Below, in pieces: positions 11,770 to 30,596 of a stretch of DNA of 64,000 nucleotides (its first letter is position 1; each line of letters begins with the position of its first letter). Origin of the DNA: an uncultured Lentisphaeraceae bacterium (GTDB taxonomy: Bacteria; Verrucomicrobiota; Kiritimatiellia; RFP12; UBA1067). The notes under the pieces were generated by a model, which saw nothing but the letters and a program-made list of their open reading frames with translations, had not been told where the DNA came from and ran no database searches. The stretch lies in NCBI GenBank assembly GCA_964440985.1, contig CAYTWE010000005.1:1206-65205 (forward strand). Reading direction: 5' to 3'. The translations under genes were made by a program, and so were the position numbers.

Positions 11770-13284
11770 ATGAAACGCAGATTGTCCTTATGCCTGCTCA
11801 TGCCGGCGATAGCCGCTTCGGCGGTTGGTCCGACGGTGAGTGACGTGTCCATAAAACAGGAAGCCGCCGCGAAGCGTATTGAGGTCGGCTACACGCTTTC
11901 TGGCGCGCCCGCCGTCGTGACGGTCGCGTTCAGCACAAACACCGCCTCCGATGCGTCGGGCGAATGGATTCCGTTGTGCGCATCCACCATGTCCAAGGTT
12001 GTGGGCGATGCGTTTCGCGTGGTGGAAACGGGGAACCGCAAGATATACTGGCTGCCCGACGGAGATTTTGCGTACATTGACGCGGGAGCCGTCAAGGCGG
12101 AAATAAAGGCCTGGCCAACGAACAATCCACCGGACTACCTTGTGTGTGACATTGTCTCGGGTGCCAATTGGTATTATGAGAACGTCGAGCAGCTGCCGGG
12201 CGGCATTGGCTCGGATGACTACCGCAAGCACCTGTTTGTGATGCGCAAGATTCCGGCCAGGAACAAGACGTGGTGGATGTGCGCACAGCCGACATCCGCC
12301 GGATATGACTCGACACGCGAATGCCGGCACCAAGTGATGCTCACAAACGACTACTACATGGGGGTGTTCGAGGTCACGCAATGGCAGTGGAAGAACGTCA
12401 TGGGCGCAGACGACTATTCCTTCACATTCCCGGTCGATGGAGACATGCGGCCGTTTGAAGGCTGCATTCCGGCCAACACCGTGTGGAGCGGCGGTCAGGC
12501 CTGGCCCACGAATTCAGCGGGCGAGACCGTCTTTGCCGTTGGCAACAACTACTTCATCGGGCAACTGCGCACGCGCACGGGTCTCGGCGAACGGCTCTTC
12601 CTGCCGACGGAAGCTCAGTGGGAATTTGCCTGCCGGGCCGGACAGGATCATGACTTCAACGATGGCGGCGATGTCCTGTCACAAGAGGAACTCACGAACC
12701 CGCACCTTGATCTGCTGGGACGCTATGCAGGAAACGGCGGCGTCATTGGCGGCGGCGCGGAGTTCCTGTCCGGGCCGAGCAACGGAACGGCCCGTGTGGG
12801 AAGCTATCTCCCGAACGCCTTTGGTCTGTATGACATGCATGGCAACGTCTCCGAATGGTGCATCGACCTTTACAACATATGGGGAAGCAGGATTCCGCTT
12901 GGCTGGGACAGCGGCGAGATTCAGGTGGATCCACTTGGCGATTCAGTTGACGATATCGGATACGGCACATGGCGGTGCGCCAGGGGCGGGAACTGGTCAT
13001 CGCCCCCATCCGCCTGCCGCGCATCCGACCGAAGCGTGGCCTTCCAGTTCTGGCTAAGCGATTGCGTGAAGTACTGCGGATTCAGAATGTGCCTAACGCT
13101 GTCCGGCGGCGAGGAACAGTCATCTGTCGCATCTGCCACTGCCACAGGAATCGCCACTGCGTACGGCTCATTTCGGTCTGATGACGGAATGGGGGATTTC
13201 GACACGCGCTTCGAGAGCGTCGGCACTGGCGAAGCGACATCGTTCCGTTCGGAGAAGTTCGGTTCTGTTTTCACGATAAGGTAA
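11770..13284 (+). CDS. Secreted SUMF1/FGE-sulfatase-domain protein, paralog 2, with a C-terminal linker and GSVFTIR tail
   Basis: YYMGVFEVTQWQW, LPTEAQWEFACRAG, NAFGLYDMHGNVSEWC, RGGNW, CGFRMC. Confidence 0.85.
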   Translation: MKRRLSLCLLMPAIAASAVGPTVSDVSIKQEAAAKRIEVGYTLSGAPAVVTVAFSTNTASDASGEWIPLCASTMSKVVGDAFRVVETGNRKIYWLPDGDFAYIDAGAVKAEIKAWPTNNPPDYLVCDIVSGANWYYENVEQLPGGIGSDDYRKHLFVMRKIPARNKTWWMCAQPTSAGYDSTRECRHQVMLTNDYYMGVFEVTQWQWKNVMGADDYSFTFPVDGDMRPFEGCIPANTVWSGGQAWPTNSAGETVFAVGNNYFIGQLRTRTGLGERLFLPTEAQWEFACRAGQDHDFNDGGDVLSQEELTNPHLDLLGRYAGNGGVIGGGAEFLSGPSNGTARVGSYLPNAFGLYDMHGNVSEWCIDLYNIWGSRIPLGWDSGEIQVDPLGDSVDDIGYGTWRCARGGNWSSPPSACRASDRSVAFQFWLSDCVKYCGFRMCLTLSGGEEQSSVASATATGIATAYGSFRSDDGMGDFDTRFESVGTGEATSFRSEKFGSVFTIR

Positions 13285-13292
13285 GGTGACGA

Positions 13293-16200
13293 ATGGGTGT
13301 CTCAATGATGTTCTCACGCATTGATCCGGTAAAGGCGATATGCGCAGCATTCCTTTTTGCGTTCTCGGCGGCTGTCGCAGATGAAAGGATCGTGAACGGT
13401 TCGTTTGCCGCCGGATCAAGTGGATGGTCGATCTATCGTGGCCATGTGGATGCTGCCGTTTCCCGCGACAGGCCGGGCGGCAGTCTTCGCCTTGAGTTCG
13501 CGGACGGAATGAAGGGTCAGGCGATTGCGCACCAGAAGGTTGCGTTGAACCAGGAAGAGGCGGCCCCGTTTGCGTATTCCGTCTGGACAAAGTGCGAGGG
13601 TCTGCCGCAAGAGGCAGTGCCGTCGCATGACAACTTCGGAATCGAGCTGTGCGTCAACTACCGGGACGGCAGAAGCCAGTGGATATCGACAAAGCGGGCG
13701 CCGGGCGTCGGTACACACGGATGGGAGCGACTGGCCGGACACTTTGTGCCGCCGAGAGCCGTGAAGGAGGTCATCTTCTATGCACGGCTCAGGCTTGCCG
13801 GAAAGGCGTGGTTCGATGAATTTTCGCTCGATTCGTTCCTGCCGCCCCGAAACGATCTTCCGGGATGCACCATCAGGGAGGAGACAGGGACGTTCGTCCT
13901 TGAGAATGGCTACATGCGCCTTGTCTTCGAGCCTGCAAAGGGCGGCACCTGCCGGGAATTCACAGTGAAGGCCACGGGCATAAACTACGCCGGCGATCTG
14001 CATCCAAACGCTCGCCTCTTCACTGACAGGTTGCGTGTTGGCGGCAAGTCGTACGACCGCGTCTACCATGCGGAGGTTCTGCGGAACACTCCGGAAGAAG
14101 CCGCGCTGCGCCTGTCGCTGACCGCCCCAGACGGATACCCCTTCCTTGAACTGTCGAAGACGTTCCGGATCACGTCCCGCTCGGCGGCGCTTGAATGCAC
14201 ATATTCATACCGGAACCTGCCGGAATCGATGTCCGCGCAGGTCTTTGAACCGTACTTCCGCAACGGTATGGCCGCGTTCAAGCGTCCGGGGCAACGCTAT
14301 CTCGTCCCGACGGCGAATGGCGTTCGCCGAATCGGTCCGACGGGCGGCAACATGCCGTTAACAAACGCAGTTGCCGGATGGGTGGCGGCGGCGGACGGCG
14401 CGGGCGGTACGCTCGTCTGCGAGTTTGACTACTCAAGGCTCGCCTCCGAATACTTCTGGCTCGGTGGAGTTGACGATACGACGGCGGAATGGACGTTCCA
14501 GCCCGTAGAGGTTGCCGCCGGCGGAAGGTTCGAGACAACGCTCACCCTCTACCCGGCAACGGGGATGAAATGCCCCGACGGAGCGGAGAACGGCATCTGC
14601 GCGTCGTTTCCGGTCGGCGACGACGGAAGCGTATCTGTCGAGCTGATGGCGGCGAAACGTTATCTTGTGGAGGCGGAGATTGAGCTTGTCAAGACTGACG
14701 GATCGACGCAGAGGGTCTCGCGCACGGTGCAGCTTGTGCCCGATGCGGCTGTTCGGTTGCCGCTTGACGCAAAGGCAAAGGACTTGAAGGTTGCGCGTGC
14801 AGTCGCAAAGGAATCAGGCCGCGCCGTGTTTGAGACGGAACATCCGTTCGCGTCCGACGTCATCGTCAAGCCGCGAAAGGCGAAGGCGAAGCCGGCCGAA
14901 CTTAAGCCGTTCGAGCTCAAGCTCTCCGAAGAGCTGGTCACGCCGCATACGGCGTGGATGAAGCCGTACGCCGGCGGCAGACTGAAGGTGTTTTTCCTTG
15001 TCGATCTGCGCCACGCACGTGAAGTCGTGGAACTTGCCCAGCGCCTTGAGCTTGACCACCGCGTAATCCGCATTGCCGACCACCGCGACATCATGGCGTG
15101 GGGAATGTGCGACCGCTACGGACGCTTCACGTATGAGGATGCGAACCTTTCGCTGAAGCAGGAGCTGTCGCGTCCGCTCGACGCAATCGTAATCGCCGGC
15201 AATCTATGGCGGCACGTCGATGCGGCAAACCGCGCCACAATCGCACGGCTGGCCGCGTCAGGCGTGGGAATCGTGGAAATCGGGATGAAGCAGCCGATTG
15301 TGCCTGACGCCGCACCCGACACCGCCGGGACAAGATACATAAAGTCCGCCATTGACGATGTGCTTCTGCCGTACGGCGCGAACCGTATTGCGGCGTTTTC
15401 CGGCGGGAGGATGCGGGCGGCGCGAATCGACCGCCCGGCAGACGGCGGACTGACGCCGGTCATCCCGTACGACAAACCGGAGCCGCCTTTCAGGTATCAG
15501 GACTACTCGCTCGGCATACTGGCCCGTGCCGTCGCATGGGCGGCAAACCGTGTTGTGCCAGTGCCATCGGACGCCAGAAAATGCGTTGAGACGGTCGACG
15601 TCCCGGGGGGCGGGATGAAGATTGTCCATACGTTCTTCCGTGACGGCGAGGGACGCGTCTGCGACTGGTCGGCCAAGGCTGAAGGGCAGCCGGCGACGGG
15701 TGCGGCGTCGGCACGGAAGGTGGCGCGTCTTTTCCCGGAGGACGGAACGTACAGGATGCCGTTTGCTGTTGGCGAAAGCTTCTACCGCAGTGCGCCAAGG
15801 CGGTATCTGAATCCGCTCCGCTTCAGTCAATACAAGGCGATCGGCGTAAACGAGCTGCGGTACTGGCACTCGGAGGACAGAAGCCCGTTCTTCGACGAGG
15901 CGCGTCAGATGGGATTCCGCATGAACTTTCCTCTCACCGGTACGCATCTCTGGAAGTTCACCGAAGAGTTCTCCGAGCCGTACGCGAAGACGAAAGACAA
16001 GCGCTATCTCTGCCGAAAGCCCTGCTTCAACGATCCGGACTACATTGCCGCCGACCGCGCACGGATTGAGAAGGGCATCGAGGGACGGAAGCGCTACGCC
16101 CCGACGAGCTTCGACTGCGGCGACGAAAACTCCCTCACGCTCTGGGGAACTTCATTTGATTTCTGCTTCTCGAAGCTAACGCTGGCGGCGGAACGCAAGT

Positions 16201-17525
16201 GGCTCCGCGAGACGTACGGCTCACTTGAGAAACTGAACGCCTCGTGGAAGACGGCGTTCGCCTCCTGGGATGAAGTGACGCCGCTCACCACTGATGAAGC
16301 GCTTGCCGCGCATTCCAAGGATCGTCAATGGGCGGCATGGGCGGATCACCGGCGGTTCATGGAGCTTACGTACTGCGGCTATTTCCGTTCGGTGAAGGCG
16401 GCTATCGACGCCAAATGTCCCGGTGTGCCGCTTGATATGTCCGGAACGCAGCCGCCAAACGGGTACACTGGAATGGACATGTGGCTGCTCTCCGACGCTA
16501 TCGGAGTGTGCGCGGCATACGATCAGGAAAACCTCGCAGAGATTGTCCGCTCATTCAGACGGCCTCTCATCAAGCCGTGGTACGGCTACGGCGCCTCCGG
16601 GCCGGACGTCGAACGCAGGGTGTGGTTTGATGCATTGCGTTTCAGGAACTTTGGAGTATCCTACTTCGACGGGATGAACGTTCTGAATCCTGACTTCACC
16701 GTTCCGGATCAGGTGAAAGAGCTGTCCTCGGCTCTTAGATTCTTCATCGACGGCGGTGCGGCGCTGCTCAAAACGCTCGATGAGCGTCCGCAGGCGCTGA
16801 TTCACTATTCCCAGGCATCCATCCACGCCGCGCAGATTGAAAAACGGTACGACTCCTTCCTTGCGTCACGTGCGGTGTGGTGCAAACTGCTTGACGACAT
16901 GAACATTTCCTACCGCTTTGTCGCATACGGCGAGATCGAGTCCGGGGAACTCCGGAAAACGACGGCGCGTGTCCTCATCCTGCCGGAGTCCTCCGCCCTC
17001 TCGGAGAAGGAAGCCGCCGAAATGCGGGCGTTCGCCGCAAACGGCGGATGCGTGGTTGGGGACAGGTTTTCAGCGACGCATGACATCCACTGCAACCTTC
17101 TTGCATCAGGCGCACTTGACGATCTGTTCGTGGCGAGAAAGGGCGCGGTGCGCATCGACCGTGTGCTGCCGCAGTACAATACGCTACGCATGACGGAACG
17201 CACCGTCGCCGAAGCGGTGGCCTATCGGGATTCGATCGCCGCAAAGTTCTCGCGCTTCCTGCCTGATGTCGGAGTGCGGTATCGGTCGAAGGGCATCACG
17301 GGCGTAAGGACTTTCACGCTGTTCCCGGTCGATGGAGGGGGGAAGACTTACCTTGGCTTTGTGCGCGAAGGAGAATCCAACGGCTCGGACGGCATCACGG
17401 AGGTTGCATGGCCTGGGCGGCGAAACGTGCGGGATCTTCGCACAGGACGGGATCTTGGCCTGCGCAGCGGGATGACGGTCACGCTCGAACCGTATCAGGC
17501 GGCATTCTACGAACTTTCGAGGTAG
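13293..17525 (+). CDS. Large secreted multidomain glycoside hydrolase, GH42/beta-galactosidase-like (CBM-like N-terminus, TIM barrel, trimerisation domain)
   Basis: Signal peptide; jelly-roll motif GTHGWERL; CFNDPDY, DCGDENSL, WLRETYGSLEKLNASWKTAFASWDEV, WADHRRFME; VLILPESSALS...FAANGGCVVGD. Confidence 0.65.
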   Translation: MGVSMMFSRIDPVKAICAAFLFAFSAAVADERIVNGSFAAGSSGWSIYRGHVDAAVSRDRPGGSLRLEFADGMKGQAIAHQKVALNQEEAAPFAYSVWTKCEGLPQEAVPSHDNFGIELCVNYRDGRSQWISTKRAPGVGTHGWERLAGHFVPPRAVKEVIFYARLRLAGKAWFDEFSLDSFLPPRNDLPGCTIREETGTFVLENGYMRLVFEPAKGGTCREFTVKATGINYAGDLHPNARLFTDRLRVGGKSYDRVYHAEVLRNTPEEAALRLSLTAPDGYPFLELSKTFRITSRSAALECTYSYRNLPESMSAQVFEPYFRNGMAAFKRPGQRYLVPTANGVRRIGPTGGNMPLTNAVAGWVAAADGAGGTLVCEFDYSRLASEYFWLGGVDDTTAEWTFQPVEVAAGGRFETTLTLYPATGMKCPDGAENGICASFPVGDDGSVSVELMAAKRYLVEAEIELVKTDGSTQRVSRTVQLVPDAAVRLPLDAKAKDLKVARAVAKESGRAVFETEHPFASDVIVKPRKAKAKPAELKPFELKLSEELVTPHTAWMKPYAGGRLKVFFLVDLRHAREVVELAQRLELDHRVIRIADHRDIMAWGMCDRYGRFTYEDANLSLKQELSRPLDAIVIAGNLWRHVDAANRATIARLAASGVGIVEIGMKQPIVPDAAPDTAGTRYIKSAIDDVLLPYGANRIAAFSGGRMRAARIDRPADGGLTPVIPYDKPEPPFRYQDYSLGILARAVAWAANRVVPVPSDARKCVETVDVPGGGMKIVHTFFRDGEGRVCDWSAKAEGQPATGAASARKVARLFPEDGTYRMPFAVGESFYRSAPRRYLNPLRFSQYKAIGVNELRYWHSEDRSPFFDEARQMGFRMNFPLTGTHLWKFTEEFSEPYAKTKDKRYLCRKPCFNDPDYIAADRARIEKGIEGRKRYAPTSFDCGDENSLTLWGTSFDFCFSKLTLAAERKWLRETYGSLEKLNASWKTAFASWDEVTPLTTDEALAAHSKDRQWAAWADHRRFMELTYCGYFRSVKAAIDAKCPGVPLDMSGTQPPNGYTGMDMWLLSDAIGVCAAYDQENLAEIVRSFRRPLIKPWYGYGASGPDVERRVWFDALRFRNFGVSYFDGMNVLNPDFTVPDQVKELSSALRFFIDGGAALLKTLDERPQALIHYSQASIHAAQIEKRYDSFLASRAVWCKLLDDMNISYRFVAYGEIESGELRKTTARVLILPESSALSEKEAAEMRAFAANGGCVVGDRFSATHDIHCNLLASGALDDLFVARKGAVRIDRVLPQYNTLRMTERTVAEAVAYRDSIAAKFSRFLPDVGVRYRSKGITGVRTFTLFPVDGGGKTYLGFVREGESNGSDGITEVAWPGRRNVRDLRTGRDLGLRSGMTVTLEPYQAAFYELSR

Positions 17526-17538
17526 TGCGGCATTCCGT

Positions 17539-17573
17539 GGCGGCGTATTGTGCGTTGATGCAATTTCGCCGCC
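17539..17573. terminator. Imperfect hairpin between convergent genes
   Basis: GGCGGCG (17539-17545) pairs with CGCCGCC (17567-17573), with internal ATTG.GC/GCAAT pairing; no clear U-tract. Confidence 0.3.
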
Positions 17574-17592
17574 GGACACGCCGCCGGGCGGC

Positions 17593-18231
17593 TCACTGGT
17601 TCCTGACAATCGCGTGTGACAGCACGGCGAGCGACTGTGCGAGATCCACGTTCTGCACGAGAACTCCGTCAGGCACCGACAGCTGCACGGCGGTGAAGTT
17701 CAGGATGCCCTTGATTCCGGCATCGACAAGCGCATCGGCGCAATCCTGTGCGGCAAGGCTCGGCACCGCGAGAATCGCGAGTTTCAGCTTCAGACGCTTC
17801 ACGAGGTTCTTGAGGTCTTCCATCGGATGAACCTTGACGCCGTGTATGGAAACGCCCTGAAGCTGCTTGTCGGAGTCGAACGCGGCCGCGACGGAAAGGT
17901 TCTGCTCCTCAAATCCGGAGTAGCCGAGAAGTGCGCTGCCGAGCGAGCCAACGCCGATCAGCGCGGCATCCGTCGCATTGTCCCAGCCCAGCGTACGGTT
18001 TATGGCCTCGCAAAGCTCTTTTGCGGGATATCCTCTGCGGGGTCTTCCCGGCACTCCGGCCATTGCGAGATCCTTGCGCGTAAGCACCGTATCGAGACCG
18101 AGGCGTTCGGCAAGCACATAGCTTGAAATGTACAGCTCACCTTCTGCCATCAGCTTGTTGATGGTGCGAAGGTACAGCGGGTAGCGTCGTATTGTCGGCA
18201 ACGGCAGCGAGTTTTCACGTGCAACATCCAT
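17593..18231 (-). CDS. rex: Redox-sensing transcriptional repressor Rex
   Basis: PLPTIRRYPLYL winged helix, TRKDLAMAGVPGRPRRGY, Rossmann GVGSLGSAL, GIKGILNFT. Confidence 0.93.
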   Translation of the reverse strand: MDVARENSLPLPTIRRYPLYLRTINKLMAEGELYISSYVLAERLGLDTVLTRKDLAMAGVPGRPRRGYPAKELCEAINRTLGWDNATDAALIGVGSLGSALLGYSGFEEQNLSVAAAFDSDKQLQGVSIHGVKVHPMEDLKNLVKRLKLKLAILAVPSLAAQDCADALVDAGIKGILNFTAVQLSVPDGVLVQNVDLAQSLAVLSHAIVRNQ

Positions 18232-18238
18232 GCGCCAT

Positions 18239-18247
18239 ATTATACCA
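18239..18247 (-). promoter_or_regulatory. Extended -10 TGGTATAAT, 7 nt upstream of the rex ATG
   Basis: Plus strand ATTATACCA. Confidence 0.7.
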
Positions 18248-18251
18248 CAGA

Positions 18252-18280
18252 TGCATTGCCGTTTGGATATATGCTACAAT
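18252..18280 (+). promoter_or_regulatory. Promoter of the glycosylation cluster; 26/29 identical to 37457-37485
   Basis: TGCATTGCCGTTTGGATATATGCTACAAT. Confidence 0.7.
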
Positions 18281-18290
18281 ACGCGATGTT

Positions 18291-20003
18291 ATGACGAATT
18301 TCAAGTTGACTGATGACGAAGCTGAGAAGTCCCAATCAGATGCGCCGAAACGGTTTTGGTGCGTCTTGTCTGCGTTGCGGCCGACGGGGCGGCGGTTTCA
18401 GCGCATCGCCTGGTTCTCGTCCTTCACCGCCGCATTTGCTGTGTTGGCGGCGTTCGTCTTCTGGGGGACATGGTCGTGTGATGTTGCCCCGGTCATGCCG
18501 GACTGCGTCACTGTTCATCCGACTGCATGGATGGATGTCTTTCGAGATGTCTTGCGGAAATTCATGTCTACCGGCAAGTTCGTTCCGAGCGACATTCTTT
18601 GGGATGGTCTTCTCATCTCGCCGTATTTCTGCCAGGAACTGAAGTATGCCGTTGCGCTCTATTGCGCGGGGCTGGGCCTTGCGTACTTCCTGCGTGGACG
18701 CGGCCTGTCGCGTATAGCATCCTATGGCGCGGGCCTGTTGCTGGCGTTCTGCGGCTACTGGGCGTCGCTCTTCTCCGCCGGTCATGGCGGCTGGTTCATC
18801 TGGATGACGTATGGCGTCTTTGCATTTGGCCTTGCCGACAGGGCGGTGCGCAAGGGGAAGTTGAAGAACTGGCTGCTTCTCGGCGCGTGTGCCGCGTGGG
18901 GCAGTTTCTATCAGCCGGATCTTTGGCTGCTCTTCACGGTTTTGACGGGACTGTATTTCGCATGGTGCTGTGTGCGAGAGCGGAGGCTTCCGTGGAAGGG
19001 TGCGCTTATTGCATCGGTTGTGTTCTTTGCCGTCGGTGCGCCGAGTTTCCGTTCAGCGCTTGTGAGCGACCTCAAGGGACGCGATGCGCAGATTGCCGCT
19101 GGCGAGACGGTCTCCTCCTCGTCGGCCGGTGACGATGCGGAAAAGCGCTGGATATTCGTCACGAACTGGTCGCTGCCGCCGGCTGAGATCGCGGAGTTCT
19201 TCATTCCTCGCCTGAACGGCGACACGAGCTGTCCGCTTACGCTTTCGATCGGTGCACAGTCTGGATCCGGGGTGCGGCCTTACACTGGCGCTCTCGGACG
19301 TCCGAAGGATGCGGCGCAGGGCAACTATCGTCAGCACTCGCTCTACGTTGGTTTCGTGACGTGTCTCCTTGCGCTTGCGGGCGTTGTCTTCGGCTGGCGC
19401 AAGCCGGATGCCCGATTCTTTGCGCTTGCGGCGGTAGTCTTCTGCCTCTTTTCTTTAGGGCGGTATTGCGAGCCGGTGTATCGTCTTGTCTATGCGCTGC
19501 CGTTCGGCGACTATCTGCGTGCGCCTGTCAAGTGGCATCATCTGACGGAGTTCTGCCTGTGCGTTCTGGCGGCGTATGGCATCGAGGGTTTGCTTGGCCT
19601 ATCTATCATGAAAGGAAGGTGCGGGCTTGTGCTTGCAGGGGCGATTGTGCTGATAGGAGCGTTCGACCTTGCGCGAGTCGATCGGCTCTACTGCGCACCC
19701 GTAGATCTGCGGCGCGTCCGCGAGACGGACAGCGAGATGCAGATGAACGTACTCCGTCGCGAGGATTTCTCCAATCCGCAGGTTGCTGAAATGGTGCGGC
19801 GAGGTTCGGTCGTCTCGCTTGCGCACTATCTCGGAAATCCAAACCTGTATCTTGTGGAGATTCTGACGCCGCGCAAGCCGTCGAAGGAACCGTTGCCGCC
19901 GTTCGGCACGGCGGCGGCTTTTGGAGTTCTGTCGATGGCTGGAACGCTTGCCGTGGCGGGCGGATGTGCGCTCGCTTGCCGCCGGGTGGGGGGTGACGCA
20001 TGA
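18291..20003 (+). CDS. Polytopic membrane protein, YfhO-like / GT-C-fold glycosyltransferase
   Basis: More than 10 TM segments; WSLPPAEIAEFFIP, YRQHSLYVG, YLRAPVKWHHL patterns; adjacent to GT2 and GT87. Confidence 0.6.
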   Translation: MTNFKLTDDEAEKSQSDAPKRFWCVLSALRPTGRRFQRIAWFSSFTAAFAVLAAFVFWGTWSCDVAPVMPDCVTVHPTAWMDVFRDVLRKFMSTGKFVPSDILWDGLLISPYFCQELKYAVALYCAGLGLAYFLRGRGLSRIASYGAGLLLAFCGYWASLFSAGHGGWFIWMTYGVFAFGLADRAVRKGKLKNWLLLGACAAWGSFYQPDLWLLFTVLTGLYFAWCCVRERRLPWKGALIASVVFFAVGAPSFRSALVSDLKGRDAQIAAGETVSSSSAGDDAEKRWIFVTNWSLPPAEIAEFFIPRLNGDTSCPLTLSIGAQSGSGVRPYTGALGRPKDAAQGNYRQHSLYVGFVTCLLALAGVVFGWRKPDARFFALAAVVFCLFSLGRYCEPVYRLVYALPFGDYLRAPVKWHHLTEFCLCVLAAYGIEGLLGLSIMKGRCGLVLAGAIVLIGAFDLARVDRLYCAPVDLRRVRETDSEMQMNVLRREDFSNPQVAEMVRRGSVVSLAHYLGNPNLYLVEILTPRKPSKEPLPPFGTAAAFGVLSMAGTLAVAGGCALACRRVGGDA

Positions 20004-21930: not shown

Positions 21931-22036
21931 ACTGTCATCGTGCGTGATTCCCGGATGTTGCCGATTCCCATGCAGAATGCGTTGAGGATTAGAGGCTTGC
22001 AGGTGTTTTTTCGATGCGTCCAACAGGGTAGAGTTG

Positions 22037-22045
22037 TGGTATAAT
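22037..22045 (+). promoter_or_regulatory. Extended -10 TGGTATAAT for the V-ATPase D-I-K-MATE unit
   Basis: Read directly; leader with AAGGAG follows. Confidence 0.65.
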
Positions 22046-22074
22046 CATGCGCTCAAGGAGATGACCTTGTAGCC

Positions 22075-22698: not shown

Positions 22699-24440
22699 TA
22701 GTTCCGATGAAGCGCCTTATGCTGCTTTGCGTTGCGGATGATGCCGGACGCACTCTTGGCAGGCTGCGCGATCTTGGCGTTGTGCACCTTGAGCTGTCTC
22801 AGCGCACCGGATCAGAGGGAACTGTCGCCAAGGGAGAGCTGGAGGATGCCGAGCGGGCGGTGCGGATCGTCATGAAAGCCGCCAAGGAACGTCATCCGCA
22901 GAGCGAAGTGAAAAAGGATGCCCTATGCACTGTCGACGAAATTCTGTCGCTGAACGGTCAGCGCGAAGAGGCGAAAGGCAAGGTTGAGACGCTCCGTGCC
23001 GAAATAAGGCGGTATGAACCATTCGGCGATTTTGACGTTGAACTTGCCAGACGGCTTGAATCGTCCGGCATAAGGCTTCAGCTGTGGGATGACGGGACGT
23101 TTGATTTCATCTACGGTGAAGACCAGCCCATTGGACGGGCCGGTGTGCGTCCGGTTTCGCTTCCTTCCGAACGGCTTGCTGTCCTTCGTGCGCGGCTGAC
23201 GGACGCTGAAGGGGAGGAGAAGAGGCTTGCGGAGAGACTCGCGTCGGCCGATGTTGACGGCATTGCCAGGAGTTTCCCGGAACTGCGCGATGCCGTCGCC
23301 TTTGCGGTGGCAAAGGACGAGATGGAGGCGAACCGCTTTTCCGACGACTCCGTCGTCGGTGCGCCGCAGATATCGCTCGTACGCGGATGGGTGCCGGTCG
23401 ATGGCGTGGAGACGCTGCGCAGCGCTGCGAAGGAATGCGGCTGGGGCATTGCGTTGCGCGATCCAGATGCGGAGGAGAACCCGCCGACGCTGATTCGCCC
23501 GCCAAAGCTGTTCCGTCCGGTCACCGCTCTGTTTGACGGTCTCGGGATCGCTCCCGGCTATACGGAGACGGATGTGTCCGTACCGTTCATGTGCTATTTC
23601 TCGCTCTTTTTCGCGATGCTTGTCGGCGATGGCGGATATGGTGCAATCATCCTTGCGGCAGCTCTATACGGATGGTTCAAGACCAGGCCGAAGAGCGGCG
23701 GTGCGAGACCCGTGGCGGTGTCGAGCTGGCTCACGCTCCTGACGGTGTTCGCCTCCGCCACGATTGCATGGGGATTCCTGTCGAACACTTGGTTCGGGGA
23801 GGGGTTGCCGTTTGCGCAGGACTGGCCTACGGTCAAATGGCTTGCCGATCCGTCCTACAACAACATGATGCTTCTGTGCTTCACAATCGGCGTCTCGCAT
23901 CTGATGTTGGCACGGATCTGGACGGGGCTTTGCACCTTGAACGACAGGACATGCCTGAGCCAGTTTGGATGGGCGGGGGTGCTGCTGTTCATGTACCTCG
24001 TCACGAACTCAATCGTCGGAATCTTTGACGGCATCCCAGTGTGGGGCTACTGGATGTTCGGAGTGTCGCTTGTCTGCATATTCGGCTTTACGCTGAAGGG
24101 CAACGAACTGAAGACCCGCGGCATAGAGCTTGGCATGCTGCCGCTGAACATAATGAGCGCCCTCGGTGACATCATCTCCTACGTGCGTCTGTTCGCCGTG
24201 GGGCTGGCGTCTGTGAAGGTGGCGCAGAACTTCAACATGATGGCCACCGGAATGGATCTGCCGCTATGGCTTAAGATCGTCCCGATGGTGCTTATTCTTC
24301 TTGTTGGGCACGGTTTGAATCTCGCGATGGCGGGGCTATCCATCCTCGTGCACGCGGTGCGTCTGAACACGCTGGAGTTCTCCAGCCACAAGGGCATTTC
24401 GTGGTCGGGGTATGCGTTTGCCCCGTTCCGCAGACATTGA
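22695..24440 (+). CDS. ntpI: V/A-type ATP synthase subunit I
   Basis: GWVP, PPTL, FFAMLVGDGGYG, DIISYVRLFAVGLAS, HAVRLNTLEF. Confidence 0.93.
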   Translation: MIVPMKRLMLLCVADDAGRTLGRLRDLGVVHLELSQRTGSEGTVAKGELEDAERAVRIVMKAAKERHPQSEVKKDALCTVDEILSLNGQREEAKGKVETLRAEIRRYEPFGDFDVELARRLESSGIRLQLWDDGTFDFIYGEDQPIGRAGVRPVSLPSERLAVLRARLTDAEGEEKRLAERLASADVDGIARSFPELRDAVAFAVAKDEMEANRFSDDSVVGAPQISLVRGWVPVDGVETLRSAAKECGWGIALRDPDAEENPPTLIRPPKLFRPVTALFDGLGIAPGYTETDVSVPFMCYFSLFFAMLVGDGGYGAIILAAALYGWFKTRPKSGGARPVAVSSWLTLLTVFASATIAWGFLSNTWFGEGLPFAQDWPTVKWLADPSYNNMMLLCFTIGVSHLMLARIWTGLCTLNDRTCLSQFGWAGVLLFMYLVTNSIVGIFDGIPVWGYWMFGVSLVCIFGFTLKGNELKTRGIELGMLPLNIMSALGDIISYVRLFAVGLASVKVAQNFNMMATGMDLPLWLKIVPMVLILLVGHGLNLAMAGLSILVHAVRLNTLEFSSHKGISWSGYAFAPFRRH

Positions 24441-24471
24441 ATGGATTTCGCAACTAAAAAGGAGTGATAAA

Positions 24472-24918
24472 ATGGAGGTAATGGTTGTTTCTGGCGCGAT
24501 TGCGTGCCTTGGGTTGAGTGCAGCCGGATCGGCGTTCGGGACAGGTCTTGCGGCGGCAGCCGCCGTGGGTGCATGGAAAAAGTGCTATGCGGCCAACAAG
24601 CCCGCCCCGTTCATCCTGCTTGGTCTTGTCGGCGCTCCCATCACGCAGACGCTTTACGGCATGATTCTCATGTTCGTCATGTTCGGCAAGACGGCCATCG
24701 CGGGGGCGGGAGTTCCGCTTCTTGTGCTGGGCATCTTTGCCGGTTTTGCGGTAGGGCTTTCCGCATTCCTGCAGGGACGCGTTGCGGCTGCGGCCTGCGA
24801 TTCGCAGGCGGAGACCGGACAGGGGCTTACGCTGTATTTCGCAGCGCTCGGCATCATCGAGACCGTAGCCATCTTCACGATGGTGTTCACGATCATTGCG
24901 CTCAGCAAGATAGCGTAA
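24472..24918 (+). CDS. ntpK: V/A-type ATP synthase subunit K (c ring), Na+-binding signature
   Basis: Four TM helices; PITQTLY, LQG, IIETVAIF; SD AAAAGGAG. Confidence 0.92.
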   Translation: MEVMVVSGAIACLGLSAAGSAFGTGLAAAAAVGAWKKCYAANKPAPFILLGLVGAPITQTLYGMILMFVMFGKTAIAGAGVPLLVLGIFAGFAVGLSAFLQGRVAAAACDSQAETGQGLTLYFAALGIIETVAIFTMVFTIIALSKIA

Positions 24919-26370
24919 GTGTCTAAGCGGACATCAAGGACGAATGAACTGGCAACGGCCCCGCTGGGGTCGTTGCTTTTCAGATATTCCTGGCCGGCGC
25001 TTGTGGCGATGAGCCTCAACGCGCTCTATGCCGTGGTCGACCGGTTCTACATCGGTCGCGGATGCGGGGAGGCGGCGATGGCCGGCCTTACGCTCACGTT
25101 TCCCGTGATGATGCTGTTTGGGGCGTTTGGCGTGTTCGTCGGTGCAGGACATTCTGCGGTTCTCTCGCTGCGTCTCGGTGAGGGGAATCGCGTTGCCTGC
25201 GAAAAGCTTCTTGGACAGCTTGTGGCGTTCAAGCTGCTGTTCTTTCTTGTTCTCTCGCCTCTCGTGTTCTTCAATGCCGACACGGTGCTGAACTGGTGCG
25301 GCGGCGGAAAGGTGTCCTCAGCCGCATTCGCCGCCGCGAAGGGATACCTGCGGCTTGTCGTGTTTCCGATGTTATTCAGCCACCTTGCGTTCGGTCTTTC
25401 CGCGATGATGCGGGCGGAGGGGAATGCGGTGAACTCGATGGTCTGCATGGTGGTCGGTTTCTGCGCAAACCTGCTGCTCGATCCGCTGTTCATCTTCGGC
25501 GTGGATCTGCCGGCTCTCGGCGTAAGGATTGAACCGCACGGAATTGAGGGTGCGGCGTGGGCCACGAACATTGCGATGTTCCTCAGTTTTCTCTGCGCCG
25601 TCAGCTACTACCTGCGCGGACGCAGCACGGTGAAGTTCCGGCTGAAGCGCATTGGCTTCCACAAGGGACTGTTCATCAAGCCCATGGGAATCGGCATGGC
25701 GCCGTTTCTGCAGCAGCTGATGGGCGCACTGATAAACCTTTCCCTTGCGGCGGCGTTTGCGCACTGGGCGCAGGATGAGGCTTCGGCGACGATGCAGGTG
25801 GCGTCCCTCGGCGTATTCCAGAGCGTCATGATCATCACTCTGATGCCGATGTTCGGCACACAGCAGGGCATACAGCCGATTCTTGGATACAACTGGGGAG
25901 CGAGGAACTTCATGCGGGTGAGGCAGGCGCTCCTGCTCGGATTTTGGATTACGACCGCCATCTGTGCGGTCGCCTGCGCCGCCCAGGTGATTCCTCCGTT
26001 TCCACGGCTTCTTGCGCGGATATTCATTGAAGGCGGCAACGCTGCGCTGCTTGAGACCGCCGCGCACGATCTCGCGATAGCCAACTGCATGGTATGGACG
26101 ATCTCGATAAACGTGGTTGCAACTACGTATTTTCAGTCCATAGGCCATCCGCGCACGGCGATATTCCTGTCGATGCTGCGCCAAGGCGGATGTCTGCTTC
26201 CGTGCATATGGCTGCTGCCGCTGATGGCGTCCAAGACCGGACTCTTCGCGCCGACGCTCGGCGTATGGCTCGCCTTGCCGGCCTCGGACATTCTTTGTCA
26301 GCTCGCGACGATACCGCCGGTGCTTTCGCACCTCCGCTTTCTCGGCAAGTGCGGCCAGCGCGTGAGATGA
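24919..26370 (+). CDS. MATE-family efflux transporter
   Basis: LLFRYSWPALVAM, VVDRFYIG, MRAEGN, NLLLDPLFIF, GIEGAAWAT, QGIQPILGYNWGA. Confidence 0.9.
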   Translation: MSKRTSRTNELATAPLGSLLFRYSWPALVAMSLNALYAVVDRFYIGRGCGEAAMAGLTLTFPVMMLFGAFGVFVGAGHSAVLSLRLGEGNRVACEKLLGQLVAFKLLFFLVLSPLVFFNADTVLNWCGGGKVSSAAFAAAKGYLRLVVFPMLFSHLAFGLSAMMRAEGNAVNSMVCMVVGFCANLLLDPLFIFGVDLPALGVRIEPHGIEGAAWATNIAMFLSFLCAVSYYLRGRSTVKFRLKRIGFHKGLFIKPMGIGMAPFLQQLMGALINLSLAAAFAHWAQDEASATMQVASLGVFQSVMIITLMPMFGTQQGIQPILGYNWGARNFMRVRQALLLGFWITTAICAVACAAQVIPPFPRLLARIFIEGGNAALLETAAHDLAIANCMVWTISINVVATTYFQSIGHPRTAIFLSMLRQGGCLLPCIWLLPLMASKTGLFAPTLGVWLALPASDILCQLATIPPVLSHLRFLGKCGQRVR

Positions 26371-26397
26371 CGGGATTCCACTCCGTCCGGCGGCGCA

Positions 26398-27579
26398 TCA
26401 CCTTTCGGAAGATTTGAGAGGACGGCAGTGTGACGGAGGATGACCGCACTTGAGCTTGTACAGGCGCGTGAGATGCGTTGCGGACGAAAAACCGCACTGT
26501 TCTGCGATGCTGACGATCGATGCGTCCGTCTCACGAAGCAGCTTGGACACCCGTTCGAGCCTGGCGTTGATGATGCTGGCGTAGACGCTGGTCTTTTCGT
26601 GTTGCCGGAAACGCAGGTTGAGCAGCGACTGCGATACGCCGAGATGCCGTGCGACATCCGCCACGGTTATAGGCGACTGCGCATTTGCTGAGATGTAGTT
26701 CAGCGCACGCTCAACAAGCGATGCGCCGAGGTTCAGTTGGCAGGTCGAGTCGCGCACCACTATGCGCCGAGGCGGAATCCACAGGACTTGCGGGCGGAGG
26801 GCTGGCGTTTGAAGACGCATCAGCCGCTCTAAGGCGCATGCACCCTCGTAGCCCTCGCGACGGTAGTCGGGCGCGACGCTGGACAGGCTTGGAACGGATG
26901 TCGCGCAGAAGATGGGGTTGTTGTCAACTCCGAGGACGGAGATGTCACCTGGAATGCGCAATCCGGCTGCCCTGCAGGCTTCAAATGCGCTGGTGCTGTG
27001 GTAGTCGCCAGCGAGAAGGAGTGCGGACGGCTTCGGCAGCGCCAGCAGATAGCGTTGAAGTGCCTCATTGTATGTGGAGGAGCAAAAGGTCGCTCCGGTA
27101 GAGAAGACGCGAACGGTGCGTCCGTGCATCTGGAGTTCGCATCTGTAGCCGCGCAGACGGAGGCGTGACCAGCGTGAGGCGGGTATGTCTGGCAGAAAGG
27201 CGAATGAGCGAAAGCGTCCCAACGAAAGGAAATATTGCGCGGCCATCCGTCCTATCAGGCGGTTGTCAGCTCCGAGAAAAACTACGGACTGCCGCCGTCT
27301 GCAAAGCCGGTCGTCCGTGTTGCCGAGAGCGACAAGCGGCATCTGCACGTCGCGCAAGCAGACGCCAAGCTCATTGGAGAGCGGATGGTTGACAAGGATG
27401 CCGTCAATGCCATCGGCCCGGGCGGATTCGACAAGTGTGCGCGTGAGCGTCAAAGGTGGCGTAATCAGCCGGACGTTCCATGGATGCTGCCTTTCCCGGA
27501 TGTAGTCAAGGACGCCGGAGAGAACGTCTATGCTGGCCGGATTGACGGTTTGGAAGGAGAGTATGACGCTTTTACCCAT
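26398..27579 (-). CDS. XylR-type regulator (periplasmic-binding-protein-like sensor plus AraC HTH)
   Basis: IPGDISVLGVDN, SLSSV, C-terminal ITVADVARHLGVS...RLERVSKLLRETD.SIVSIAEQCGFSS. Confidence 0.88.
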   Translation of the reverse strand: MGKSVILSFQTVNPASIDVLSGVLDYIRERQHPWNVRLITPPLTLTRTLVESARADGIDGILVNHPLSNELGVCLRDVQMPLVALGNTDDRLCRRRQSVVFLGADNRLIGRMAAQYFLSLGRFRSFAFLPDIPASRWSRLRLRGYRCELQMHGRTVRVFSTGATFCSSTYNEALQRYLLALPKPSALLLAGDYHSTSAFEACRAAGLRIPGDISVLGVDNNPIFCATSVPSLSSVAPDYRREGYEGACALERLMRLQTPALRPQVLWIPPRRIVVRDSTCQLNLGASLVERALNYISANAQSPITVADVARHLGVSQSLLNLRFRQHEKTSVYASIINARLERVSKLLRETDASIVSIAEQCGFSSATHLTRLYKLKCGHPPSHCRPLKSSER

Positions 27580-27586
27580 GCGTTGC

Positions 27587-27595
27587 ATTGTAGCA
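27587..27595 (-). promoter_or_regulatory. Extended -10 TGCTACAAT, 7 nt upstream of the regulator ATG
   Basis: Plus strand ATTGTAGCA. Confidence 0.65.
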
Positions 27596-27622
27596 TAAAG
27601 ATTTTGAGCTTGGATAGGCTTG

Positions 27623-27657
27623 TCGGAATTGTCAATGAAATTTTATCGGAATCGTCA
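27623..27657. promoter_or_regulatory. Direct-repeat operator candidate TCGGAAT(T/C)GTCA x2, 23-nt period
   Basis: 27623-27634 and 27646-27657 match 11/12 and lie between the divergent regulator and the SGNH operon. Confidence 0.6.
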
Positions 27658-27677
27658 TTTATTTCCGTACAACCATG

Positions 27678-27686
27678 TGCTATATT
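27678..27686 (+). promoter_or_regulatory. Extended -10 TGCTATATT, 7 nt upstream of ATG 27694
   Basis: Read directly. Confidence 0.55.
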
Positions 27687-27693
27687 TTTCGAC

Positions 27694-29061
27694 ATGGGAA
27701 CACTTTTGAAAAATTCGTTGCGGATTGTCGGAAAGTTTTACGTCGCCCTGCTTTCGTTTGTTTGGTCTATTTTGTGCATCGCCGGAGAGGTCAAGCCACC
27801 ATTGCCGTTCCGTTCAGGCGAACGCATCGTGTTTCTCGGCGATTCAATCACCAAGAACGGCAAGTACCTCTACTTCCTCCAGCTGTTCGAGGAACTGCGC
27901 CATCCAGGGCGCGGCGTCACCTTTCTCAACGCCGGCATCAGCGGGGACCGTGTGGACAGCGGTCGTGAACGTCTTGACTGGGACGTGCTGCCGTTGAAGC
28001 CGGACCGTGTAATCGTAATGTTCGGCATGAACGATGTGAAGCTGGCGCTGTGGGAAAGCGCAACGCCGGACGCGGCAGCGCAGGATGCGCGAGACAAGGC
28101 CGTTTCCGGCTTCAGGCGCGAGTTGGAGCGGCTGATAGACGGATTGGCGACCGCAGGTGTGCGCTGCGATCTGGCGACGCCGCCGCCCTACGACCAGTAC
28201 GATGTCGCATCGAAGGCGGTGTGCCGCACGAACGGAAACGAGCCGGGGCTGGCGCGTCTCGCCGAAGTTGTGCGCCAAGTCGCGGCTGAACGCGGTCTCG
28301 GTCTCGTGGATGTCCACCGTCCGCTTACTGCCGTTCTGAAGTCTCATCCCGAACTTGGGCTGCTGCGCGGCGATCGGATACACCCGTGGTGGGAAGGACA
28401 CCTACTGCTGGCCGTCCAGTATCTTGAGGTCATGGGCGAAGATGGCGAGGTTGGGCGTATCGAGCTGACGGCGTCAGCGGCGAAGAGAGGTTTTCGCTAT
28501 GCCCCGAAGCGTCTGCCGTTCCCCCGTCTGGATGTCTTCTGGCGCAACATGGAGCGTACGGTCGAGACGGCGTATCCGTTTGAGGAGAGGTTCAACCGTG
28601 AGATCCTTGTGGTGAAGGGGCTGCAGGCCGGACGTTACGCCGTCCTGGCGGACGGGCGCGAGTTCGCGTCGTTTGACGCAGCAGAGCTGGCGCACGGCGT
28701 AAACATCGCGATGTGCGACACTCCTTCCTGTCGGCAGGCGCAGACGGCGGCAAAGACGATGATCGAGCTGATGACTCTTGAGACGACCTTTCGCGACGTG
28801 CCGTATATGGCGCGTACGGAGCGGAGCGTAAAGGATCTTGATCAGTGGCTGAAATCTCTTGAGAAGAATCCTCACCATGCGTACTATGCCTCCTGCGTGA
28901 AGTCGTATCGCGAACAGAAGGAGCGCGCACCGGAGACACAGGCGCAGGCGAGGGCGTTGCGGGCGCGGCTATCCAGGGAGGCGCAGGCGAAACCATGGGT
29001 GATTTCCGTTCGTCGCCTGACTGGCGTCGAACAGGGCAAACACGAAGTGAGAGGGAAATGA
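27694..29061 (+). CDS. SGNH/GDSL hydrolase (probable carbohydrate esterase), secreted
   Basis: FLGDSIT, NAGISGD, MFGMND, DRIHP blocks; N-terminal hydrophobic signal. Confidence 0.88.
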   Translation: MGTLLKNSLRIVGKFYVALLSFVWSILCIAGEVKPPLPFRSGERIVFLGDSITKNGKYLYFLQLFEELRHPGRGVTFLNAGISGDRVDSGRERLDWDVLPLKPDRVIVMFGMNDVKLALWESATPDAAAQDARDKAVSGFRRELERLIDGLATAGVRCDLATPPPYDQYDVASKAVCRTNGNEPGLARLAEVVRQVAAERGLGLVDVHRPLTAVLKSHPELGLLRGDRIHPWWEGHLLLAVQYLEVMGEDGEVGRIELTASAAKRGFRYAPKRLPFPRLDVFWRNMERTVETAYPFEERFNREILVVKGLQAGRYAVLADGREFASFDAAELAHGVNIAMCDTPSCRQAQTAAKTMIELMTLETTFRDVPYMARTERSVKDLDQWLKSLEKNPHHAYYASCVKSYREQKERAPETQAQARALRARLSREAQAKPWVISVRRLTGVEQGKHEVRGK

Positions 29062-30596
29062 TGATGAACAAATTACGGATGGTCTGCTTCGCGGCGCTTG
29101 CGTTTGTGTGCACGTCTTTGCGGGCGGTTGAGTATGTAGTGCCGGATTACGAGCGTTGGCCAGCGTACACGGACATTCACACGCAGGTGTCGAATGCACT
29201 GGCTTGTTGCCAGAACGGCGATGTCGTGACGATTTCAGCGGGAATCCATGAGCTGCCGGACGATGCAGTGACGGCGTTCAATACGGAGAAGGTAGGCGCT
29301 TGGATGGCGCCCAACTTCTATTCTGGCGGTGTCACGTTGCGCGGTGACCCGGCAGCCGGACGAGACGGAGTCGTCATTCGCGGCGGTGCGACGTATGCGG
29401 TCGTCTATGCCAGAAACCGGGCCTTGAGGATTGAGGGATTGACCTTCGAGGATTGCGCAAACGGGCAATCACGTGCCGTTGTGGGGTATCAGGATTTTTC
29501 GTGCACCTGGAGTGGATTAGTTGTCTCCAACTGCGTCTTTCGCGGCACGGAGCCAAAACTCGGCGCGGGTGTATGCTATGCGACTGTCGTGGACTGCGTC
29601 TTCTCGAACTGTTTTGCGAGTTCCGGAGGTGCCGCCAGCAGTTGCCGCGTCTTCGATTCCGTCTTTCGCGCAAACGAAGCGACAGTGTACGGCGGTGCCC
29701 TGCAATCGTGCCCGGTCGTCAGCAATTGTGTGTTTGCGGCGAATGCGGTTAGCCAATACGACGGCGGCGCACTTGCCGGATGCGGCATCGTTGCCGACTG
29801 CTGGTTCGAGGGAAATTTCGCGACGCGATGGGGCGGTGCGCTGTTCGGCTGCACGGATGTCCGTGACTGTGAGTTTGGTTCGGGAAATGCAGTCGGCGGT
29901 GTTGTCACGCAGAGTGCTGGTCCAGTCTCCGCCAACAGTTCCTTCACTCGCTGCACGTTTACGGGCAATCAGGGAAACGAAGCCGGATCCTATACGGCCT
30001 GCATCTTCACGAACATGACGGTGGCTCCGATAACCTGTCGGACGAACGGATCCCTTTCGCTCACCAACTGCCTGTTCGCGTCGAGCGACGTTCCTGGAAT
30101 GTTCGTCAAAGGCGGATTGCTCGCAAATAATTCGTGTACGATCGTCAACTGCACGTTTGTCGACAACCGGTCCGGCGACGTTCTTTTGGACATGAAGTAC
30201 GGCGAAGCGAAGAACAACCTCTTTTTCGCAAACTGGCGGATTTCCGGTGGGGTGTCCGCACGGAATGACGTTACTGTCCGCGTTGCGACTGGTGGTGGAT
30301 TCATGATGATGAACAATGCCTATGGCGTGGTGTCCGGTGGTCTCGGCGCGGCAGGCGAGGGAAATTTCCAGATTGAGAATCCGCGTTTCTCGAAGGGCGC
30401 AATCGCCGGCGCTCCATACTGGTCGCTTCAGGCGACGCCACGCAACCGGCAGGTTCGGTACGGCGGACTGGTAGAGGACTGGATGGCGTCGGCGACAGAC
30501 TTGGCAGGCGCACCGCGTCTGTGCGACGGTAAGGTCGGTGTTGGATGCTATGCATGTGACCTGAACGAAGTGGGCTTTCGTCTGCTTGTGCGGTAG
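29058..30596 (+). CDS. Secreted right-handed beta-helix protein with Pmp-like FxxN/GGA repeats and GFRLLVR tail
   Basis: FRAN..YGGAL, FAAN..DGGAL, FEGN..WGGAL; C-terminal DLAGAPR...VGVGCY. Confidence 0.7.
   Translation: MMMNKLRMVCFAALAFVCTSLRAVEYVVPDYERWPAYTDIHTQVSNALACCQNGDVVTISAGIHELPDDAVTAFNTEKVGAWMAPNFYSGGVTLRGDPAAGRDGVVIRGGATYAVVYARNRALRIEGLTFEDCANGQSRAVVGYQDFSCTWSGLVVSNCVFRGTEPKLGAGVCYATVVDCVFSNCFASSGGAASSCRVFDSVFRANEATVYGGALQSCPVVSNCVFAANAVSQYDGGALAGCGIVADCWFEGNFATRWGGALFGCTDVRDCEFGSGNAVGGVVTQSAGPVSANSSFTRCTFTGNQGNEAGSYTACIFTNMTVAPITCRTNGSLSLTNCLFASSDVPGMFVKGGLLANNSCTIVNCTFVDNRSGDVLLDMKYGEAKNNLFFANWRISGGVSARNDVTVRVATGGGFMMMNNAYGVVSGGLGAAGEGNFQIENPRFSKGAIAGAPYWSLQATPRNRQVRYGGLVEDWMASATDLAGAPRLCDGKVGVGCYACDLNEVGFRLLVR

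Follow-up and report, generated by a model that had tools for sequence, protein, structure and literature searches.

A conserved C-terminal heptapeptide on large exported proteins of gut Kiritimatiellia as a candidate sorting or retention signal

Two secreted proteins encoded in one stretch of bacterial DNA, one with an FGE-sulfatase domain and the other a Pmp-like beta-helix, end in similar heptapeptides, and the question is whether this shared ending is an accident or a signal. The stretch, called the window herein, is 64,000 nucleotides long and covers positions 1206-65205 of contig C5 in the genome of an uncultured bacterium of the class Kiritimatiellia (genome G000; 2.1-Mb assembly, 80 contigs, 94% complete). 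A preliminary description had read the two endings, ...FGSVFTIR and ...VGFRLLVR, as a possible new tag, and both were confirmed in the translations of the open reading frames (ORFs) of the window. The heptapeptide is the core of a real, apparently undescribed C-terminal tag on about fifty large exported proteins of surface type. The tag is position-specific, linked to signal peptides, portable on unrelated cargo, conserved at the protein level, left unpacked in structure models and patchy in its distribution. It probably serves in sorting or retention: an envelope receptor that recognises the extreme C-terminus would capture the tail as an added beta-strand. We infer this from cargo and anatomy.

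Genes of G000 were called with our own simple codon-bias model, which gave 1480 proteins and covered 92% of the DNA. The very end of each protein was searched with the pattern G..[LIVFMYW].[LIVFMYW]R; below, Φ stands for a hydrophobic residue. The pattern was found at the C-terminus of 46 of the 1480 proteins, where 0.99 was expected from its 425 internal occurrences in 634,362 internal positions. Among 10,604 ORFs rejected as non-coding, 12 had a terminal match. A signal peptide was identified by a crude rule in 42 of the 46 tail proteins versus 413 of the 1434 others (Fisher odds ratio 26, p 3.4e-18). Two of the four tail proteins that fail the rule have a visible signal peptide that it overlooked, and the match on contig C73, a cytoplasmic Fe-S protein with no signal peptide, is a chance match. 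The enrichment among secreted proteins that was predicted for a sorting tag is thus present genome-wide. No lipobox was found among the 46, and no carrier is a lipoprotein. The carriers are large, with a mean of 996 amino acids versus 435, and they make up 7.1% of all proteome residues; the tail is present on 26 of the 68 signal-peptide proteins of at least 1000 amino acids. Since variant tails that end in K or lack the Gly also exist (SPGLVVHVK, KFGFIVIR, RSMVISIR), the true number of carriers is near 50.

The codons behind the conserved positions are diverse, as all four Gly codons, all six Arg codons and all three stop codons are used in G000. This indicates a constraint on the protein rather than on a recoded stop or a DNA repeat. 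The TAG stop is over-represented in the tail genes (16/46 vs 249/1480 genome-wide), and most of the listed tail matches of the related genome G023 end in ...CGN-TAG although that genome has 67% G+C. A terminal Arg is common in G000, where 18% of all proteins end in R and 16.5% in K, so that a terminal R by itself is uninformative. Several other proteins of the window, including those at 13293-17525, 53676-55067 and 60276-61790, end in a Gly-less Φ-x-Φ-[S/V]-R (...FYELSR, ...FKLSR, ...LRISR). These endings are background and are liable to mislead a reading by eye.

The first carrier in the window is the FGE protein; its tail-less paralog, encoded just upstream, is listed last for internal contrast.

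11770..13284, plus strand: gene of the FGE-sulfatase-domain protein (FGE paralog 2, 504 amino acids), a tail carrier; from translation, Pfam PF03781, E 4e-24

11770..11826, plus strand: its signal peptide of Sec type, MKRRLSLCLLMPAIAASAV, end approximate; from sequence reading, positive by the signal-peptide rule, no lipobox

13156..13260, plus strand: flexible linker rich in Ser/Ala/Thr/Gly, residues 463-497, ahead of the tail; coil in AlphaFold2, with a predicted local distance difference test (pLDDT) score below 50 for residues 463-504

13261..13281, plus strand: tail G-S-V-F-T-I-R, then stop at 13282-13284; from translation, kept in close homologues

10261..11754, plus strand: FGE paralog 1, the tail-less neighbour; ends in ...IGARLCYTIVE, then stop, at the end of the FGE domain

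FGE paralog 2 ends in ...FRSEKFGSVFTIR, followed by the stop. The AlphaFold2 model consists of an Ig-like N-terminal domain and the FGE domain, and residues 463-504, the tail included, remain below a pLDDT of 50. The sequence and this low-confidence segment bear out the Ser/Ala/Thr-rich linker of the preliminary description. The tail is kept in homologues of 41-83% identity (GLVFTIR, GSTFIFR, GMMIIFK, GLMMIVR). Linker and tail are found only in these closest homologues (at least 41% identity), while remoter ones stop at the end of the FGE domain and terminate like FGE paralog 1. This indicates that the tag is a portable addition.

The second carrier in the window is the beta-helix protein.

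29061..30596, plus strand: gene of the Pmp-like right-handed beta-helix protein, 511 amino acids from the start MMMNKLRM; from translation, database copy of 511 amino acids, PF13229 Beta_helix

29061..29132, plus strand: its signal peptide, MMMNKLRMVCFAALAFVCTSLRAV, end approximate; from sequence reading, positive by the signal-peptide rule

30573..30593, plus strand: tail G-F-R-L-L-V-R, then stop at 30594-30596; from translation and family conservation

This protein ends in ...DLNEVGFRLLVR, followed by the stop. It matches the parallel beta-helix repeat TIGR03804 (E 0.0017), and its homologues bear Chlam_PMP repeats. With the FGE protein it shares the Sec signal that had been noted for both, and neither has a beta-barrel or a known anchor, as judged by the lack of a barrel Pfam domain and of any match to a curated sorting-signal model. 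In the family of this beta-helix, the protein end matches G..Φ.Φ. in 34 of 41 homologues; in another four the tail is hydrophobic and ends in R or Q but has no Gly. The tag begins about 10 residues after the D-Φ-G-C-Y-E-C motif that ends the helix, which places the minimal unit at about 8-10 residues. The ORF is open from 28995 (28995-30596, plus strand) with a likely start at 29061. Its first 22 codons, window positions 28995-29060 (MGDFRSSPDWRRTGQTRSEREM), are probably untranslated, as the database copies start at MMMNKLRM, and the ORF overlaps the end of a GDSL-lipase gene at 27235-29061.

The simplest explanation would be that the shared ending comes from chance, from a repeated DNA element or as a by-product of the GFRL end motif of the FGE domain itself. 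The frequency of terminal R in G000 and a slight likeness of the FGE domain end, G-F-R-L-C-Y-T-I, to the tail speak for it. The observed excess of 46 over about one and the diverse codons speak against chance, and the tail of FGE paralog 2 sits 60 residues beyond the GFRM motif of its domain. Most carriers have no FGE domain. The excess and the codons refute this explanation, whose probability is considered negligible.

The tag has the form (P)-x(1-2)-G-[T/S/M/F/L]-x-Φ-x-Φ-[R], and its place is the very end of the protein. The residues found at each position, counted over the 46 tails, are as follows.

Position -9: P or R
Position -8: R or Y
Position -7: G, 46/46 (fixed by the search pattern)
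Position -6: T, M, F, L, S
Position -5: V, R, T
Position -4: V, I, L, F
Position -3: S, I, V, T
Position -2: V, I, L
Position -1: R (fixed by the search pattern)

Pro at -9 is present in just 10 of the 46. Many tails have R or K directly before the Gly, at -8. In carriers of the PATR type, a strand of the form G-x-Φ-x-Φ-x-Φ lies ahead of the tag. The preliminary description had characterized the tail as an alternating beta-strand. The consensus G-x-x-Φ-x-Φ-R stands, but strict alternation does not, since in many homologues all five residues before the last are hydrophobic (GLIIVVR, GTLLLFR, GFMMIFR).

Homologues of three unrelated tail families were traced in a collection of 5.8 billion proteins. 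In the family of the 1259-residue protein encoded at G000 C3:24239-28018, the ending ...P-[KR]-G-x-x-Φ-x-Φ-[R/K/H] is shared by about 30 of 33 homologues, which reach down to 24% identity. Across its last 220 residues this family has just six invariant columns, the tail Gly among them. AlphaFold2 folded these 220 residues, with 25 homologues, into a confident beta-helix (pLDDT about 95), and the final eight residues (PRGTVVVV-R) were modelled as unpacked coil. This indicates that the tail is free in the monomer, as expected of a linear signal that pairs with something else. The best Foldseek matches of the model in the PDB are weak (best E 0.007) and are the autotransporter passenger helices of IcsA, Ssp, IgA1 protease, pertactin, Hap and Ag43. 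A beta-helix from a gut metagenome in the PDB is also matched, again weakly.

The carriers are unrelated, as had been claimed from the two window proteins: once the last 35 residues are removed, the 46 sort into 20 groups between which BLAST detects no relation at E 1e-5. Their Pfam domains include PATR, Beta_helix, Chlam_PMP, BspA-type LRR_5, Laminin_G_3, DUF2341, Gly_rich_2, F5/8 type C and FGE-sulfatase, with PATR found in 5 of the 20 carriers scanned. No Pfam model spans the tail in the carriers scanned. NCBIfam, which includes curated models of C-terminal sorting domains, gave no match on the last 110 residues of the carriers, and the source databases name the carriers nothing beyond "hypothetical". 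One gene with 62% identity to a Kiritimatiellia tail-protein family was found in a bin titled Limosilactobacillus gorillae (L157, CAVJWR010000104.1); this bin is probably mislabelled or contaminated.

The distribution of the tag was followed in relatives and across the phylum. A tail hidden Markov model (HMM) trained on G000 (A1) matched almost only G000 and G002. The first impression from it, a genus-specific tag, was dropped when de novo C-terminal statistics found tails elsewhere; the HMM had missed the relatives because it was too specific for V/I-rich tails. A broader HMM had too low an information content for six-frame searching of genomes. The end-of-ORF statistics were repeated on DNA sampled from other genomes, with the following results.

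G015, the family of G000: 11 tails in 400 kb, ending in R, K or Q
G218, the family of G000, other genus: 6 tails in 400 kb, ending in M or Y (RGTMILFM, AGTMITVM, GGSIIRFY)
G023, another family of the order of G000: 5 tails in 453 kb, all ending in R
G026, another family of the order of G000: one likely tail in 80 kb
G028, the order of G000, family f11: no tail in 80 kb
G051 (Kiritimatiella glycovorans), other order of the class: no tail in 400 kb, two PEP-CTERM-like proteins
G057 and G048, other orders of the class: no tail in 140 kb and 100 kb
G036 and G052, other classes: no tail in 200 kb each

The last residue thus varies by lineage, with R in G000 and G023, M or Y in G218, and R, K or Q in G015. 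Such variation is what would be expected if the extreme C-terminus is read by a co-evolving partner.

A DNA pattern calibrated on the sampled genomes, G-[T/S]-Φ-Φ-x-Φ-R-stop, was then run on 101 genomes belonging to the class and 131 belonging to the phylum, with the reversed pattern as control. An excess was seen in the following genomes, with counts given as pattern/control.

Family f1: G000 16/2, G013 22/2, G095 20/0, G101 35/0
Family f6: G023 49/2
Family f77: G299 42/2
Family f13, genus g49: G242 27/1, G313 16/0

All 16 matches listed for G313 end in true stops. No excess was found with this pattern in eight f11 genomes, G080 (f1, genus g19), the other f13 genera or K. glycovorans, nor in any of 88 genomes from other classes. 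The pattern is blind to tails of the M/Y type, so that these absences are provisional. Provisionally, the tag appears to be patchy, all-or-none among close relatives, within several gut lineages of the class Kiritimatiellia. Sharp contrasts lie between genera g1, g2, g4, g20 and g21 of f1 and their relative g19, between g49 of f13 and g25, g47 and g166, and between f6 and f77 on one side and f11 and K. glycovorans on the other. The sampled genomes and the DNA pattern agree with the lineage-specific tag of the preliminary description. A different shared ending was seen in G036 (C1:1-200000, L104-L113), where four paralogous signal-peptide proteins of about 1550 amino acids end in ...(R/K)-[VL]-INLLD-x-T-x-x-E-x-x-Φ-x-[F/W]. 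This may be another common C-terminal module or a barrel signal.

The following mechanism is proposed for the sorting or retention signal. Once Sec has exported the protein, the tail would not join the folded body but remain a short, free hydrophobic strand, whose last residue is basic, or lineage-specific, and whose carboxylate is free. Through beta-strand augmentation, this strand would be recognised by a receptor in the envelope, which would then deliver the protein across the outer membrane or else retain it there. Candidate readers are an acceptor in the outer membrane or at the surface, BamA, a periplasmic reader that is associated with a secretin or of PDZ type, and a protease that cuts near the invariant Gly. 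The export or anchoring role had been put forward in the preliminary description; its enrichment test was passed, while the role itself is still inferred from cargo and anatomy.

Several points weigh against a role in sorting or retention. A receptor gene did not emerge from the gene neighbourhoods, the Omp85 proteins or the exosortases examined, and there is only one Omp85. In the neighbourhoods of the 46 tail genes, no gene family is enriched and only paralogues recur. The presence of exosortase does not co-vary with the tail. The gene and signal-peptide calls come from our own crude heuristic scripts, and the distribution outside G000 comes from samples of 80-450 kb and from a DNA pattern limited to tails that have T or S at -6 and end in R. 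A tag of 7-10 residues could instead serve a structural or quality-control role.

In such a role the tail would be no sorting signal. It could cap an edge strand, serve as a strand for oligomerisation, or be recognised at the C-terminus by a PDZ protease or chaperone of the periplasm, which would govern how large beta-rich exoproteins fold or are turned over. A short sequence at the extreme C-terminus that needs its free carboxylate is the hallmark of ligands of PDZ domains and tail-specific proteases, and the tail is very short and sits at the extreme C-terminus. The lack of packing in the AlphaFold2 models fits this explanation too, as does the fact that no dedicated machinery was found. It has to account for about 20 unrelated folds, in some cases with a disordered linker of more than 40 residues ahead of the tail, and for the absence of the tail from the periplasmic and outer-membrane proteins of G000. 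Close lineages carry dozens of copies or none, a pattern more in keeping with a dedicated system than with a general aid to folding. Such a role, in particular that of a folding or turnover tag, is the main rival outside sorting, and is considered unlikely.

A tag of this kind would matter for several reasons. In abundant uncultured bacteria of the animal gut it is carried by about 3% of the genes, which account for about 7% of the protein mass, and its carriers are the proteins likeliest to touch host glycans and other cells. An end-of-protein rule would improve the annotation of many giant "hypothetical" proteins in gut metagenomes. The patchy, all-or-none distribution makes the machinery directly findable by phylogenetic profiling.

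Among the known systems, PEP-CTERM/exosortase and the other tripartite signals (LPXTG, GlyGly-CTERM, PGF-CTERM, MYXO-CTERM) resemble the tag in being many-to-one C-terminal tags on Sec-exported surface proteins. They are likewise scattered over the genome and lineage-specific, and have a small-residue motif followed by hydrophobic residues and a basic end. A PEP-CTERM signal starts with a PEP motif or a variant of it, continues with a hydrophobic helix of about 20 residues that lies in the membrane, and closes with a cluster rich in Arg. In contrast, the tail has 5-6 hydrophobic residues instead of about 20, no membrane-spanning helix, a single basic residue instead of a cluster, and no PEP, LPXTG or GG motif. 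Without a membrane helix, it cannot work like the sortase-type signals.

The tail could be conceived as a minimal exosortase signal, a PEP-CTERM trimmed to P-x-x-G-T-ΦΦΦΦ-R and processed by an orphan fusion of exosortase and EpsI. The PEP-CTERM consensus starts with PEP-s-t-hydrophobic (TIGR02595), which resembles P-x-G-T-Φ-Φ. G000 has one such fusion, at C15:39081-40676, whose best type is XrtD with 184 bits versus a cut-off of 400; by these scores it belongs to no named Xrt type. A search of the whole G000 proteome for PEP-CTERM-like proteins (a C-terminal helix plus basic cluster, or PEP-like motifs) gave no candidate, which leaves the fusion without such a substrate in the assembly. The tail-bearing genomes G218, G015 and G023 have the same fused enzyme; so do G026 and G028, in which the tail is weak or was not seen. 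Against this, PF09721 (exosortase) has no match in the tail-rich G242 and G313, which belong to one genus, nor in the rest of their family, and this largely refutes the idea. Of the 101 genomes examined in the class, 91 have exosortase, and the majority of these are tail-free, every f11 genome among them. An exosortase signal is considered highly improbable: the tag is not a PEP-CTERM, since it lacks a membrane helix and exosortase is absent from two tail-rich genomes. K. glycovorans, which is tail-less, has PEP-CTERM-like proteins, but these are not homologous to the tail proteins of G000, so that no direct swap of anchors was shown. The exosortase-EpsI gene of G000 runs into the beginning of a gene for a glycosyl-1-phosphate transferase fusion of WecA/MraY type (C15:39081-42568, outside the window).

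The beta-signal of the beta-barrel assembly machinery (BAM) and of the sorting and assembly machinery (SAM) comes close in shape. It too is a terminal amphipathic or hydrophobic strand with a G-x-x-Φ-x-Φ core, an obligate C-terminal place and species-specific final residues. The BAM consensus in the beta-signal literature is reportedly zeta-x-G-x-x-Φ-x-Φ, in the last strand of the barrel. The tail differs in a register shifted by one residue from the C-terminus, in having no barrel upstream, and in a last residue that is R, K, Q or M in most lineages and not aromatic. The barrels of G000 (TonB-dependent receptor, FadL, OMP_b-brl, DUF481, DUF3034, DUF2490 and BamA) end in ...YEF, ...YAF, ...YQF, ...YKW, ...FSF, ...YSW and ...YDF; none has a terminal R, and the tail is absent from these true outer-membrane barrels. 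Further barrels with no Pfam domain are encoded on C4, C72 and C7 of G000. No Pfam domain of an outer-membrane barrel was found on the tail carriers, and in the AlphaFold2 models a soluble beta-helix or a disordered linker, not a barrel, precedes the tail.

Type Va autotransporters and the chlamydial Pmp proteins share with the carriers the PATR and Pmp repeats, the right-handed beta-helix bodies and the passenger-like C-terminal model. The tail-positive genomes differ in having no 12-strand translocator, and the tag is also present on cargo that is not a beta-helix. The autotransporter barrel PF03797 had no match in G000 and 10 other tail-positive genomes, while the positive controls Escherichia coli, Caulobacter vibrioides and Bacteroides thetaiotaomicron were matched. 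Only a single Omp85 gene, BamA, is present in G000 and in nearly all its relatives, which rules out two-partner secretion (type Vb) with its dedicated TpsB Omp85.

These likenesses raise the idea that the tail mimics the BAM beta-signal and docks on BamA, and thereby lets passenger-type beta-helix proteins without a barrel reach the surface or stay there. It would explain the G-x-x-Φ-x-Φ shape (the core of the last barrel strand, plus one residue), the many PATR/Pmp passengers among the cargo, the passenger-like model, and a BamA that is the sole Omp85 in genomes with no autotransporter barrel. It conflicts with the real barrels of G000, whose last residue is F, Y or W but in no case R, and with a strand of six residues, too short to span a membrane. 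The tail is also found on FGE, LamG and LRR proteins behind flexible linkers; BamA is universal while the tail is patchy, and the Foldseek matches are weak. Mimicry of this kind is considered doubtful. A broader proposal is that of an undescribed route, in which a beta-signal-like strand of seven residues, caught by BamA or another outer-membrane acceptor, would place barrel-less passengers and other large exoproteins on the surface, replacing both the autotransporter barrel and the PEP-CTERM/exosortase anchor of sister lineages. Such a route is a conceivable but rather unlikely form of the system. Returning to the sorting or retention signal in general, the tag is not a BAM beta-signal, an autotransporter domain or the C-terminal domain of the type IX secretion system (T9SS).

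The T9SS resembles the present case in having dozens of unrelated large cargo proteins per genome (about 10% of the signal-peptide proteins), in the cargo types beta-helix, LamG, LRR and F5/8-C, and in a hydrophobic last strand with a basic end. Its C-terminal domain differs in being a folded beta-sandwich of 70-100 residues, compared with the 7-10 residues of the tag, and the lineage here is part of the Planctomycetes-Verrucomicrobia-Chlamydiae group, not to the Fibrobacteres-Chlorobi-Bacteroidetes group. TIGR04183/Por_Secre_tail gave no NCBIfam or Pfam match on the C-terminal 110 residues or on whole proteins. The T9SS translocon SprA/Sov (PF14349, SprA_N) had no match in 12 genomes, and the control genomes were likewise silent.

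Three secretins are encoded in G000, none visibly linked to the tail genes. One short secretin gene (553 amino acids, C10:23548-25209) lies between gatB and gatA, with no pilus or type II secretion operon nearby.

PDZ ligands and donor-strand complementation tags are like the tail in being short strands at the extreme C-terminus, unpacked in the monomer and suited to capture by beta-augmentation; PDZ ligands differ in that they usually end in a hydrophobic residue and not in Arg. A literature search that included sorting and secretion in Kiritimatiellota, PATR, the beta-signal and orphan exosortases found no description of the tag. As a sorting signal, it would be the shortest C-terminal tag known to us. 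New envelope machines have repeatedly been found through C-terminal tags, from LPXTG to sortase, from PEP-CTERM to exosortase and from the T9SS C-terminal domain to PorU/PorV, and there is a real chance that the machinery behind the present tag is new as well.

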